The notes beneath the pieces were generated by a model. The model did no database searches and was not told the DNA's origin. It saw only the letters and a list, made by a program, of their open reading frames with translations. The translations under genes were made by a program, and so were the position numbers. Source: Alphaproteobacteria bacterium (GTDB taxonomy: Bacteria > Pseudomonadota > Alphaproteobacteria > UBA8366). Taken from it: a DNA stretch of 60,687 bases. Positions 3,049 to 47,509 of this stretch are shown here, piece after piece. Location of the stretch: assembly GCA_041557595.1 (NCBI GenBank), contig JBFFGE010000004.1, forward strand, positions 1 to 60,687, given 5' to 3'. How positions within the stretch are numbered: position 1 is the first letter of the stretch; each line of letters opens with the position of its first letter.

Positions 3049-3062
3049 TTGATCCCGCTCAA
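3049..3062. promoter_or_regulatory. FNR/FixK-like box (TTGAT-CCCG-CTCAA), placed to serve the leftward USP gene
   Basis: 9/10 match to TTGAT-N4-ATCAA in a divergent intergenic gap. Confidence 0.65.
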
Positions 3063-5584: not shown

Positions 5585-5630
5585 GAATTCAAAGCCTTTC
5601 CGGAACGTCGCGGCGTCACCGGGCGCGTCG

Positions 5631-6113
5631 CTATTGCAAGACGCGCCAGGTGCCGTCCGGCTGCCGGCAGGCGGTGCCGTACCCTTGTTGGGTCTTGCCG
5701 GCGACGGTTACTTTCTGCTGGAACTCGCGACAGTACTGACCGCTCGAGGAGGTTCCGTCGCGAACCGGCGTAACCGATCCGCTGTTGCCGGTTCTCGGGT
5801 TGTCCCAGACGATCGTTTCGCCGAGCGGCGCCGTGTGCGCCCTGTTGACGGCGGCGTCCGCTTTCATGCGATCGACGCTGTCCATGGATCGTCCGATCTC
5901 GCTGCCGACCAGCGCGCCGATCAGCACGCCGACCGCGGTTGCCGCCAATTTACCGCTGCCCGAGCCGAACTGTGCGCCGAGCAGCCCGCCCGCCGCCGCG
6001 CCGCCGAGGCCGCCGACGGTCTGTTTCGGACCATACGCATTGGGGCCCGTACAGGCGGCCAGCGCCAGGAATGACGCGACCGGTAGAGCGAGAAATTTGT
6101 GGTGAACCTTCAT
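5631..6113 (-). CDS. 17-kDa surface antigen-like lipoprotein (RT0821/Lpp0805 family, glycine zipper)
   Basis: Lipobox LAAC, glycine zipper GGLGGAAAGGLLG, C-terminal YCREFQQ...GTACRQPDGTW; AAGGA RBS. Confidence 0.9.
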   Translation of the reverse strand: MKVHHKFLALPVASFLALAACTGPNAYGPKQTVGGLGGAAAGGLLGAQFGSGSGKLAATAVGVLIGALVGSEIGRSMDSVDRMKADAAVNRAHTAPLGETIVWDNPRTGNSGSVTPVRDGTSSSGQYCREFQQKVTVAGKTQQGYGTACRQPDGTWRVLQ

Positions 6114-6214
6114 GTCGGATTCCTTCGCGGTGGTTGTGGCGATACTCCAAAATGTGCGGCGCCCGAGGCGACGCGGAGCGTCCCGTCTTATCGGACGTCG
6201 GCGGCGCGAAATCA

Positions 6215-6228
6215 TTGATGTCCGTCAA
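6215..6228. promoter_or_regulatory. FNR/FixK box (TTGAT-GTCC-GTCAA) upstream of the lipoprotein gene
   Basis: 9/10 consensus match, about 100 bp upstream of the leftward start at 6113. Confidence 0.7.
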
Positions 6229-6285
6229 TCGGGGCGCCACGAACACCGATTGCCGTGGCGTCGCCAGAAGCGCTCTTGGCATGTG

Positions 6286-6299
6286 TTGATGCATATCAA
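6286..6299. promoter_or_regulatory. Perfect FNR/FixK box (TTGAT-GCAT-ATCAA)
   Basis: 10/10 consensus; no credible protein gene on the + strand downstream. Confidence 0.8.
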
Positions 6300-6333
6300 C
6301 GAACCGAATGCCGTTTTGGCACGATGATAACCG

Positions 6334-6584
6334 CAGTTACGGAAGCGTCGTTCGCGACGTAAGGGGAAACTAAGGCCATGGAGTACCCTTCCGCCGCACA
6401 AAATTCTGCCTGGCGGAACATGTGTGTCAGGAAACCTGGGGTCGTATATGCACCCATGGAAGCGGTCCGTGACGGGGAACGGCGGCACATACTTTCTGTC
6501 CTCCCCCGAGAATGCCGCCGATTCCGTTCGCTCCGGCGAACACGATCCCGTCCTAAGACGAATAGGGCGGGATCGATTTTTTTT
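6334..6584 (+). ncRNA. Candidate small regulatory RNA; 5' end inferred from FNR-box geometry
   Basis: Bounded by a perfect FNR box and a strong + strand terminator; several hairpins; CCUCCCCC exposed in a loop; no ORF that fits inside the unit. Confidence 0.5.
6543..6584 (+). terminator. Intrinsic terminator
   Basis: 13-bp stem CGATCCCGTCCTA / TAGGGCGGGATCG (one G-U pair), 7-nt loop, followed by A and T8. Confidence 0.8.
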
Positions 6585-6613
6585 CGCCATGGCGCGACGT
6601 GCGGCAACGGCAC

Positions 6614-6686
6614 GCTGCTCTATCTTTGTAAAATCGATCGCCTTTTCTGCCTTTGATTGATTCCAATCACATGCAGGTTGATCTAG
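6614..6686. repeat. Intergenic repeat family A, copy 1
   Basis: GCTGCTCTATCTTTGTAAAATCGATCGCCTTTTCTGCC...GCAGGTTGATCTAG; matches the reverse complement of 8036-8107 and directly matches 47433-47509. It ends on the TAG stop of the USP gene. Confidence 0.85.
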
Positions 6687-7510
6687 TGCGACATCAATAC
6701 GGGAACCGTCATATGTTCGAGAATATGACGGGTCACGCCGCCAAAGACCGACTCTCGCATCCTCGAATGACCATACCCACCCATCACGATGAGATCGGCA
6801 CCGCTTTCGCTGACGCGATTCAGCAAGGCTTCGCCGATGGGCGTATCGCCGGTCTCGGTCGTGTAGACCTCCACATTCAACCGGTGATGCGCAAGATGCG
6901 CCGCGATATCGGTTCCCTGTACGTCGGCGCCGGCGGCGCCGTTCGCCACGAACACGTCGACCGCATCGGCGAGTTCGAGGATCGGCATCGCATCCGCCAC
7001 GGCGCGCGCCGCTTCACGGCTGGCATCCCATGCGACGAGTACGCGCTTACCGATCCGTTTCGGCGCCGCGCTATAGGGGACGATGATCACTGGCCGCCCG
7101 GCACCCAGCATCAGCTCTTCCGCAAGATCGTTGAGGCGCCGCTCCTCCGCATGTGGCTGGCGTTGCGACACCACGACAACGTCCGCATACCGCCCGTGCG
7201 CTTCCACGACTTGCACCGGGTGGCCCCGATCCACGCGCCACTCGCATCGTTCGATGCGGCCGATTTTCTTGGCTTTCGATTCGAATAATGCGCGCGCCTC
7301 GGCGAGGCGTTCCTTTTCCCGGGATTCCATGATTTCGAAGACCGATTGCGGGAGGCGAATCGCCGCATATCCCGGCAGTTCGGCCGGAAGCGCGATTCCG
7401 AGCCCGACGAGATGGGCATCGCTTTGTTCAGCCAGCGCGAGCGCCGCGTCGACCGCCGGGACGGAATCTTTTTTGTCGCTGACATGAACCAACAAATCCT
7501 TGATCGCCAT
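6683..7510 (-). CDS. Universal stress protein (tandem USP domains)
   Basis: MAIKDLLVHV start with GGGAGG RBS; AWDASREAARAV; DLIVMGGYGHSRMRESVFGGVT...VPVLMSH. Confidence 0.92.
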   Translation of the reverse strand: MAIKDLLVHVSDKKDSVPAVDAALALAEQSDAHLVGLGIALPAELPGYAAIRLPQSVFEIMESREKERLAEARALFESKAKKIGRIERCEWRVDRGHPVQVVEAHGRYADVVVVSQRQPHAEERRLNDLAEELMLGAGRPVIIVPYSAAPKRIGKRVLVAWDASREAARAVADAMPILELADAVDVFVANGAAGADVQGTDIAAHLAHHRLNVEVYTTETGDTPIGEALLNRVSESGADLIVMGGYGHSRMRESVFGGVTRHILEHMTVPVLMSH

Positions 7511-7577
7511 CGCATTTCCTCCCGTTCGGTCGATTTGTTTCTGATGCGTATTTTGACGCGCTGCGAGGTGGTGCACA

Positions 7578-7591
7578 TTGACTTCCCTCAA
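7578..7591. promoter_or_regulatory. FNR/FixK-like box (TTGAC-TTCC-CTCAA) upstream of the USP gene
   Basis: TTGA-N6-TCAA core, about 70 bp upstream of start 7510; a degenerate second site at 7596-7609. Confidence 0.6.
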
Positions 7592-7730
7592 GGGATTGCC
7601 GCGGCTCAAACCGGCCTCGCCGCGTCGACCGAATCATGCGGCCCATCGGCAAACCTTGAATACGGCGCGCCAGACACCACATCTAGGATCCGGAACAAAT
7701 ACAGAACCGGCTATATGGTGGATAAAGGCT

Positions 7731-8030
7731 ATGGCACAGAGAATCGACAATGGCACCCAACCGACCGCCCACACGGCGGTGCAGGCGATGATCGTTCGGG
7801 CACAGCAGGTGGCCGACCAGACGGGCAAACGTGTCGGCCTGACCTTTGACCTCATGAGAGACCAAATCGAATTGGTCGACCTCAGCGCCGAAATCTCGCG
7901 AGAGGCGGTGCTATTCCGGACCGTGTCTCCCGCCGTGGGCGAATCGGACCCCGACGCCAAAGGGGCGGAGCAATCCGGCCGGCGGGAGGGCGATCTCGAT
8001 CCCGCCGCGGGATGCAATCCGGCTGATTAA
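7731..8030 (+). CDS. Hypothetical protein (99 aa)
   Basis: AAAGG before ATG 7731; plausible alpha/beta pattern (AMIVRAQQVADQTGKRVGLTFDL); fills the gap between the USP gene and a repeat. Confidence 0.55.
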   Translation: MAQRIDNGTQPTAHTAVQAMIVRAQQVADQTGKRVGLTFDLMRDQIELVDLSAEISREAVLFRTVSPAVGESDPDAKGAEQSGRREGDLDPAAGCNPAD

Positions 8031-8035
8031 CGGCC

Positions 8036-8140
8036 CAGATCAACCTGCCTTAAATTGGAATCAATTAAAGGCAGAAAAGTTGATCGATTCTACAAAGATA
8101 GAGCAGCTTATGTGCGCCCAAATGGGCGCACGCTGCTTTA
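8036..8140. repeat. Intergenic repeat family A, copy 2 (inverted relative to copy 1), with extra hairpin AGCAGC..GTGCGCCCA/TGGGCGCAC..GCTGCT
   Basis: Reverse complement aligns with 6614-6685 and 47433-47508. Confidence 0.85.
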
Positions 8141-8244
8141 GACCATTTCTTGCTTAAATTGACGCATATGAAATGGTCTTTCTCTTGGTTTTTTGCGCAA
8201 ATACGTCGTCGCGCACCGTTTCGGATCGCCCGGGAATTGCTCTA
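8138..8244. repeat. Intergenic repeat family B, copy 1 (RIME/Bru-RS-like)
   Basis: About 107 bp, closely similar to 10115-10220 and 17501-17606; overlaps the TAG stop of the FNT gene. Confidence 0.9.
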
Positions 8245-26558: not shown

Positions 26559-26612
26559 GATGTGTCCTCCTGCTTGACCGGCCGGGCAAAACCCGCGCCG
26601 GTCGCCGGGTTA

Positions 26613-47432: not shown

Positions 47433-47509
47433 GCTGCTCAATCTTTGTGGAATCGATCAACTTTTCTGCCTTGATTAGTTTCCAATTATAGGCAGAAAAG
47501 TTGATCTAG
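47433..47509. repeat. Intergenic repeat family A, copy 3 (17-bp perfect inverted arms)
   Basis: GATCAACTTTTCTGCCT ... AGGCAGAAAAGTTGATC; fills the whole gap between two convergent stop codons. Confidence 0.88.

Follow-up and report, generated by a model that had tools for sequence, protein, structure and literature searches.

The window analysed here is a 60,687-nt stretch of contig JBFFGE010000004.1 (assembly GCA_041557595.1) from an uncultured alphaproteobacterium. Within it, a 570-nt spacer separates a 17-kDa-antigen-type lipoprotein gene on the left (5631-6113, - strand) from a tandem universal stress protein (USP) gene on the right (6683-7509, - strand). We find that the + strand of this spacer probably encodes a non-coding RNA of ~250 nt (6334/6336-6584), driven from an FNR/FixK-type box, ended by an intrinsic terminator and carrying a conserved C/U-rich loop, which would represent an undescribed structured family. 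An independent non-coding unit on the + strand, between two genes of the opposite orientation, had been proposed earlier from the letters of the window alone (hereafter, the original prediction). Annotation of open reading frames (ORFs) and Pfam domains bears out the orientation of both neighbours, and the promoter, terminator and C/U-rich loop of the unit prove to be conserved in two genera, in different neighbourhoods. Comparison of the relatives further shows that most of the RNA (6336-6473) has the pattern of a conserved, covarying multi-helix domain, which the prediction had missed.

Relatives, promoter and terminator

Homologues were sought by BLAST of 6280-6600 against 61 related genomes, with a covariance model (R1) applied to the family, the order and sampled members of the class, and by pattern scans of GTDB species genomes and of metagenome contigs. 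These searches gave 28 related loci, 26 of them distinct, in uncultured alphaproteobacterial genomes and metagenomes; the named source records are all metagenome-assembled genomes titled "Alphaproteobacteria bacterium" or "uncultured Rhodospirillaceae bacterium". Four further hits were dismissed as chance matches, one in a coding region (L050), one at an efflux-pump gene junction (L055) and two in AT-rich coding regions (L028 and L058). R1 matches 10 of the 91 genomes of the order (the window's own counted), which represent genera g1, g2 and g9, all in the family of the window, plus one genome of another family. It matches none of 150 other families of the class, each sampled by one genome under stricter filters that weak matches may escape. 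The RNA family is real but narrow.

Eleven loci, termed Type A, all carry both an FNR-type box and a terminator. They comprise the window and L002, L062 and L064, in or near genus g1, and L004, L005, L006, L016, L048, L061 and L067 in genus g2. Eleven others, termed Type B, have only the 5' domain in common with Type A, and six further lineages (L042, L054, L056, L057, L066 and L069) have the domain with other flanks. Searches of Rfam 15 (4227 models) returned no match at gathering score across the whole window. When E-values up to 10 were admitted for 6100-6700, the best match (E = 0.7) lay on the - strand, over the terminator; for seven homologous loci the sole match was to RT-3 (E = 0.43), on the other strand. 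The RNA thus appears as undescribed in Rfam as had been supposed.

The box, TTGATGCATATCAA (TTGAT-GCAT-ATCAA, 6286-6299, + strand), is a perfect instance of TTGAT-N4-ATCAA, exactly where the original prediction had placed it. Its presence exceeds chance. The window holds 10 boxes with at most one mismatch versus 1.14 expected from shuffles, and none of 100 shuffles reaches 10. Genome-wide there are 24 perfect boxes versus ~0.7 expected from base composition, 7 of the 24 falling inside copies of a dispersed 73-nt repeat.

The position of the box is equally regular. Twelve of 12 loci (the 11 of Type A and L066) have it with zero or one mismatch and at a fixed spacing from the conserved core: box centre and the core motif GAAAC are 73 nt apart in the four copies of genus g1, and 78 nt apart in the seven of genus g2 and in L066. 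The helix that closes the 5' domain, P0, begins 30 nt (genus g1) or 36 nt (genus g2) 5' of GAAAC, so that the box centre falls 42-43.5 nt upstream of the first P0 base in all 12 loci (43.5 nt in the window). Class II FNR/FixK promoters have their box centre about 41.5 nt before the start site, a geometry with which the spacing seen here would agree. The conserved box distance would put the start of transcription 0-2 nt 5' of the first helix. In the window, box geometry and the beginning of P0 together define a predicted promoter segment (6322-6336, + strand) with a -10 region, GATGATAAC, and a predicted start near 6334-6336; in the genus g2 orthologues, TATAAA stands where a -10 element is expected. 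No box (at most two mismatches, within 140 nt) precedes any of the 11 Type B loci, nor L054, L056, L057 or L069.

To which gene the box belongs can be judged from the other copies. The nearest upstream call is co-oriented in L002 (genome G001; an ATP-synthase gamma subunit) and in L062 (an ATP-synthase alpha/beta-type subunit), as is the upstream ORF of L064, which has no Pfam match; the box is therefore assigned to the RNA rather than to a divergent gene. The neighbourhood differs again in genus g2, where an APH/AAA kinase and an amino-acid-binding protein are found. The window's genome holds two Crp/Fnr-family genes, one of them FixK-like: its helix-turn-helix reads ...ETVCR..., and it lacks a cysteine cluster at the N-terminus. 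The candidate activator is likely a FixK-like protein rather than an Fe-S FNR, with the caveat that the latter may have been missed because the genome is 88% complete.

At the other end of the unit lies an intrinsic terminator (6543-6584, + strand), consisting of a 13-bp stem (6543-6575, with 8 G-C pairs) followed by U8. No T-run follows this stem on the - strand, and termination is predicted on the + strand only. Anticipated as a strong + strand terminator, it is kept in the genus g1 copies, and an analogous one is found in those of genus g2.

Between the 5' domain and the terminator, a long hairpin (6474-6525, + strand) exposes a C-rich loop that is a candidate anti-Shine-Dalgarno (anti-SD) seed. 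Its outer stem pairs GGAA-CGGCGGCA (6476-6487) with TGCCGCCG-A-TTCC (6513-6525) and its inner stem TTCT (6494-6497) with AGAA (6509-6512), leaving the loop GUCCUCCCCCG (also given as GTCCTCCCCCG) at 6498-6508; this hairpin was part of the original prediction and is found just where it had been drawn. Within the loop, UGUCCUCCC is invariant across the four genus g1 copies, and the changes in the stem are compensatory. In genus g2 it is another, shorter hairpin that exposes UCCCUCU or CCCCUCU, and there is a second, single-stranded CUUUCCCCC. Overall, a C/U-rich loop is exposed in 7 of 7 folded Type A copies and in 0 of 7 folded Type B copies (none outside the P2 helix of the domain). A small hairpin placed earlier near 6527-6540 is also present, as GUUCGC-UCCG-GCGAAC (GTTCGC/GCGAAC in the DNA) at 6526-6541 on the + strand, and is kept in 4 of 4 genus g1 copies.

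With its own predicted promoter, a Rho-independent terminator and no conserved ORF, the unit shows these attributes of a trans-acting base-pairing small RNA (sRNA). In the mechanism we propose, an FNR/FixK-family activator would bind the box at 6286-6299 when oxygen is low and, from ~41.5-43.5 nt upstream of the start, recruit RNA polymerase as at a class II promoter. Transcription would end at 6543-6584, giving a two-part RNA in which the 138-nt 5' domain is followed by a variable 3' part that presents the C/U-rich hairpin loop and then the terminator. By analogy to FnrS and to sRNAs with C-rich loops, the exposed loop would most likely pair with the SD regions of mRNAs, so lowering their translation under oxygen limitation. 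That the RNA depends on FNR/FixK, is read from the + strand and acts in trans on targets is our inference.

A conserved domain shared with paralogues

The 5' domain (6336-6473, + strand, 138 nt) was delineated by comparative structure analysis and an RNAalifold consensus. It is closed by P0, in which GUUACGGA (6336-6343) pairs with UCCGUGAC (6466-6473), and contains helices P1 to P4, all on the + strand. P1 (6345-6350/6355-6360) is followed by P2 (6361-6365/6386-6390), whose loop of 20 nt, GAAAC.AAGGCCA.GGAGUA, is nearly invariant. Next come P0b (6391-6394/6462-6465), the near-invariant linker GCACAAAAUUCU (6396-6407), the covarying helix P3 (6409-6414/6426-6431, CCUGGC/GUCAGG) with its loop GGAAC..GUGU, and P4 (about 6437-6456). 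The nearly invariant unpaired parts are the P2 loop, the linker and the P3 loop. An alternative hairpin, between the linker and the 5' arm of P3, is also possible, and one substitution in L042 fits both folds. CAGG at 6428-6431, earlier assigned to a CAGG-AAA-CCTG hairpin, is better explained as the 3' arm of P3.

A search for homologues followed by covariation analysis was among the checks first suggested for this RNA, and over the 28 loci it supports a covarying structure for the domain. Pairing in P1, P2 and P3 was counted on two alignments, one of 13 sequences made with MAFFT and one of 26 distinct sequences fitted to the model (A5). On the former, 83% of cells pair versus 72% in shuffles. 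On the latter the figures are 88.2% and 74.8%, none of 500 shuffles reaching any of the measures, and 14 of 17 pairs have changed on both sides; with slid partners only 35-47% pair. One pair in P2 alternates between AU and GC (13 and 13 sequences), and another occurs as five pair types. In P0b, Type A has CCGC/GCGG, and Type B has either CUGUC/GACAG or CUGAC/GUCAG.

The terminal P0 helix provides a further comparison. All 28 members have a helix of 6-14 bp here, and 10 or more different sequence pairs form it, among them the lineage variants AUUACGGAUGCCGG/CCGGCUUCGUAAAU, CGGCUAUGGAA/UUCUGUAGCCG, AGCUUCGGA/UCCGAAGCU, GAUCACGA/UCGUGAUC and GAUGGCCGUG/CACGGCCAUU. Cognate arms form a mean helix of 9.75 bp, versus 6.4 bp for non-cognate arms and 5.9 bp when the 3' arm is shuffled. 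This contiguous-helix control is moderately discriminating, as 32 of 132 non-cognate pairs reach 8 bp; a matrix of duplex energies, which are best for the cognate pairs, separates the lineages better.

The same domain recurs behind other promoters. The window's genome has a Type B copy on another contig (C79:4108-4202, - strand; L012/L040), between otsA, which encodes trehalose-6-phosphate synthase, and an alpha/beta-hydrolase gene. This copy has its own terminator and neither an FNR box nor a C-rich loop, and the same arrangement is seen in 10 further loci. A weaker third class, "Type C", has the linker-plus-P3 module only (GCACAAAAUUCUGCC.G.CGGAAC...GUGUG.C.GG), again with its own terminator. 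It includes a locus in the window's genome (C41:26729-26811, + strand; L052), L051 in G001 and L053 in genome G002. Upstream of L051 and L052 stands CTTGAA-N16-CCATCT/CCACTT, which we take to be RpoH-like, and upstream of L053 GGAAC-N16-CGTT, which we take to be EcfG-like. The 5' domain is a module common to paralogues with other promoters, which is a new point.

One locus places the domain in a leader. In L054 (genome G078, of another family; 690-870, - strand), it lies between a fixJ-like response regulator with a histidine-kinase fragment and a Crp/Fnr-family gene, whose product has a C-X2-C-X7-C motif and ETVSR. The domain has a P0 of 10-14 bp and ends 25-30 nt before the SD of the Crp/Fnr-family gene, which starts with GUG. 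Two partners are open to the UCUUCC run at the 3' margin of P0, the GGAAGA of the 5' extension of P0 and the SD, GGGAGG, an alternative that resembles a translational switch, as read from this single sequence. A C/U-rich run also lies directly 3' of P0 in L042 and L069.

These observations raise the possibility, which we consider unlikely, that the functional core of the RNA is the 5' domain itself, acting as a riboswitch-like sensor or a protein-binding scaffold with the C/U-rich segment as its effector arm. The arm would mask an SD in cis at some loci and act in trans, or not at all, elsewhere; the window copy would then be an RNA with a built-in sensor, whose output follows the domain's state, instead of a plain base-pairing sRNA. 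Several features are in keeping with this: the domain surpasses the remainder of the RNA in conservation, with almost invariant loops and covarying helices; three or more kinds of upstream region and 3' part accompany it; and there is the position of the domain in L054, the choice open to its UCUUCC, and the C/U-rich run after P0 in L069 and L042. However, only 1 of the 28 loci is a clear 5' leader (L054, with L069 perhaps a second), on a contig of 2.3 kb from a genome bin with 7% contamination, and the alternative pairing has been read from a single sequence. The window copy and the other 10 Type A loci end in a terminator, and in genus g1 there is no co-oriented downstream gene. The context also varies (otsA, alpha/beta hydrolase, HAD hydrolase, amino-acid binding protein, USP) and suggests no ligand or protein. 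Thus, of the marks of a riboswitch, a covarying aptamer-like domain is found, and a consistent position in the leaders of related genes is not seen among the 28 loci.

A broader version, which we hold to be quite unlikely, is that P0-P4 constitute a new sensing or protein-binding module tied to the lineage's oxygen and stress regulons and used both in cis and in trans. If so, the domain would free or mask in cis the SD of the Fnr-type gene at L054, and maybe that of a HAD hydrolase gene at L069, and together with an anti-SD arm it would have been recruited into stand-alone RNAs under FNR/FixK, RpoH-like and EcfG-like promoters. The RpoH-like and EcfG-like cases would be relatives sharing part or all of the domain, and the window RNA a 'detached riboswitch' acting in trans, with the domain's state gating its anti-SD loop. 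Under the reading we favour, that of a stand-alone RNA with a C/U-rich loop, the anti-SD loop may nevertheless be only part of how the RNA works, and a role of the 5' domain in stability, protein binding or sensing is possible.

Transcript, strand and coding potential

Six RNA-library runs hold part of 5600-7700, and four were compared with the locus. In one (X15), a 171-nt contig corresponds exactly to 6364-6534 and is separate from a lipoprotein contig (to 6151) and a USP contig (6622-7513). A second run of the same study (X16) has contigs 6364-6528 and 6543-6741, and a run of a second study (X17) has a contig 6403-6605. None of the four compared runs covers the promoter regions 6168-6309 or 7517-7700, and the signal therefore fits RNA rather than contaminating DNA. 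Contig depths for the RNA and its neighbours are 32.6 versus 16.8 and 7.8 in X15 and 15.6 versus ~3 in X17, figures that are not usable as a measure of expression. The RNA is thus present in metatranscriptomes of two studies, separate from the neighbouring genes; its strand we infer.

If the strand were the other one, the signal would be a long 3' untranslated region or read-through of the USP gene, or an antisense RNA, and the box would serve only the lipoprotein gene. The contigs have no strand information, the X16 contig 6543-6741 spans both the terminator region and the 3' end of the USP gene, and that of X17 continues beyond the U-tract; moreover, the box is palindromic, and to its left lie a second, imperfect box (6215-6228) and the lipoprotein gene. 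We nonetheless regard this explanation as highly improbable. In X15 the RNA (6364-6534) and the USP gene have separate contigs. The + orientation is also the one in which structure, promoter geometry and terminator are conserved, despite differing neighbours, including co-oriented upstream genes. An FNR-like palindrome at 6657-6670, which might have driven the - strand, was rejected as an antisense promoter since it belongs to the dispersed 73-nt repeat, with >150 copies.

A small protein, encoded for instance by the 92-codon frame from 6378 or a shorter one with a conserved AAGGAG as its ribosome-binding site (RBS), scarcely comes into consideration. An SD-like AAGGAG (AUGGAG in the window) does occur in the conserved unpaired P2 loop, and + strand ORFs exist (6378..6656 and 6424..6660), but both run through the strong terminator, as had been remarked at the outset; the ATG at 6378 is ACG in the three other genus g1 copies and AAG in the remaining aligned members, no start codon lies 5-12 nt 3' of AAGGAG in any group, indels of 1 nt and 2 nt lie within the 6378 frame, and substitutions track base-pairing rather than codons. 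As far as these comparisons go, they show a locus without a conserved ORF.

Candidate targets, surroundings and known systems

The loop had been reported as complementary to the RBSs of narK2 and the USP gene. Both matches are there: TGTCCTCC (26563-26570) precedes the start of the second MFS/NarK-type gene by 4 nt, and TCCTCCC (7517-7523) is the SD of the USP gene. They prove uninformative: when the genome was scanned for stretches of 8 nt or more that complement the loop region and stand before a start codon and an ORF of 80 codons or longer, 258 hits came out (k-mer rows, counted without merging those of one gene), the narK2 match being one. Complementarity of at least 8 nt is common, and we rejected narK2 and USP as targets on the ground that such matches do not discriminate.

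A longer match concerns an amidase-signature gene of the window's genome (433 aa; contig C245, ~466-483), which adjoins a tRNA gene. From its SD up to the AUG, 15 contiguous bases are complementary to the loop, and in G001 both partners have changed with 7 + 5 bp of pairing retained. We treat this match as a lead, not a finding. Complements of the invariant linker and of the P2 loop, sought across the genome with up to two mismatches, are scattered only, with no exact match outside the RNA genes. As for trans factors, an hfq gene is present; titration of a CsrA-type protein by the AAGGA-like loop was considered and rejected, no csrA gene being found in the 88%-complete genome.

A number of points weigh against the picture of an FNR/FixK-driven RNA that acts through its C/U-rich loop. 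The window's own -10 element is weak, and L066 carries the box but no clear C-rich loop. The 5' domain is more conserved than the loop, and the main function may lie elsewhere, because paralogues without a C-rich loop retain the domain. The covariation alignment A5 favours the structure, because it was fitted to the model, and the aligned sequences come from few lineages and are not independent. The RNA runs are assembled contigs, which give no strand, level or true ends; accordingly, the contig ends at 6364 and 6528/6534 are not RNA ends and may reflect strain variation, and the X17 contig extends 21 nt beyond the U-tract. Finally, the amidase match is not retained in genus g2, and no target can be named because the loop complements ordinary SD sequences, as the 258 hits illustrate.

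The surroundings of the RNA are those of what looks like a low-oxygen, FixK/FNR-controlled island of nitrate respiration and stress genes. The window contains narK-narK-narGHJI, a formate/nitrite transporter gene and two USP genes, among others, with FNR-type boxes before several of them. Further FNR/FixK-type boxes with zero or one mismatch are located at 3049, 3086, 4950, 6215, 9203, 12523, 28106 and 40981, and mostly precede - strand genes (USP, lipoprotein, formate/nitrite transporter and narK). A TTGA-N6-TCAA site (7578-7591) lies upstream of the USP gene. Between the USP gene and the end of the formate/nitrite transporter gene, the 630 nt of 7610-8240 have no Pfam-supported gene, an ORF at 7578-8030 being without a match; at the right end of this interval are one copy of the 73-nt repeat and a GC-rich hairpin (8112-8131). 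The repeat, of ~73 nt, contains a hairpin and the palindrome TTGATTCCAATCA and is dispersed in >150 copies over the genome, three of them in the window (6614-6686, 8037-8107, which is inverted, and 47433-47509). It probably causes the fragmentation of the assembly, as many copies sit at contig ends.

Among alphaproteobacterial sRNAs, AbcR1/2 and the CcsR 'cuckoo' RNAs have C-rich anti-SD loops (CCUCCC or CCCUC). The window RNA resembles them in its C/U-rich hairpin loop complementary to SD sequences and in having paralogous copies within the genome. It differs in that the motif is found in one hairpin, in that the paralogues share a larger 5' domain, not repeated C-rich hairpins, and in the lack of an Rfam match. 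SreA/SreB and EutX/Rli55 are riboswitch-derived or riboswitch-containing RNAs that act in trans; as with them, a structured domain occurs here both in a 5' leader and in terminated stand-alone RNAs, but there is one clear leader (L054), and a link between the state of the domain and an output is conjecture.

FnrS has an Rfam model, and to our knowledge it has no closed multi-helix domain of the kind described here. The window RNA, with no match in sequence or structure to any Rfam model and hence none to that of FnrS, is about twice as long, 55% of it being the closed domain. Like the Hfq-dependent FnrS of E. coli and Salmonella, the window RNA is a stand-alone sRNA gene with an upstream FNR-type box and an intrinsic terminator, and for each the proposed action is to pair close to the RBS and so repress mRNAs that are dispensable in the absence of oxygen. 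The host of the window RNA is an uncultured alphaproteobacterium, and its likely activator is FixK-like and not an Fe-S FNR. The window RNA would thus be functionally analogous and unrelated to FnrS, which passages of a review describe as an FNR-activated sRNA of enterics (PMC8139620).

The same passages describe PcrZ of Rhodobacter sphaeroides as a low-oxygen sRNA dependent on PrrA and FnrL, with control by FnrL perhaps indirect, and list an alphaproteobacterial sRNA, DenR, with its regulator given as not known (PMC8139620). The window RNA shares with PcrZ an alphaproteobacterial host, a presumed response to low oxygen and a presumed dependence on an FNR-family factor; it has, unlike PcrZ, a consensus box at class II distance, and there is no sequence relation. 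Full-text literature searches, which did not extend to supplements, found no FixK/FNR-box-driven sRNA of such a kind. Passages of PMC5596092 and PMC2245857 report no FixK-driven sRNA, and PMC5711450 concerns the rreB mRNA, an unrelated subject.

FNR-activated sRNAs have been well studied only in enteric bacteria. An RNA such as the one proposed here, in an uncultured lineage of sediment and soil, would give denitrifying environmental bacteria a post-transcriptional arm of their low-oxygen response that is concrete and open to test. Besides the sharing of its domain among paralogues, what is new is the occurrence of that domain, in one genome, in the leader of an Fnr-type gene. As an uncatalogued structured family that is reused with different promoters, and once as such a leader, it is a candidate both for Rfam and for structure-function work.

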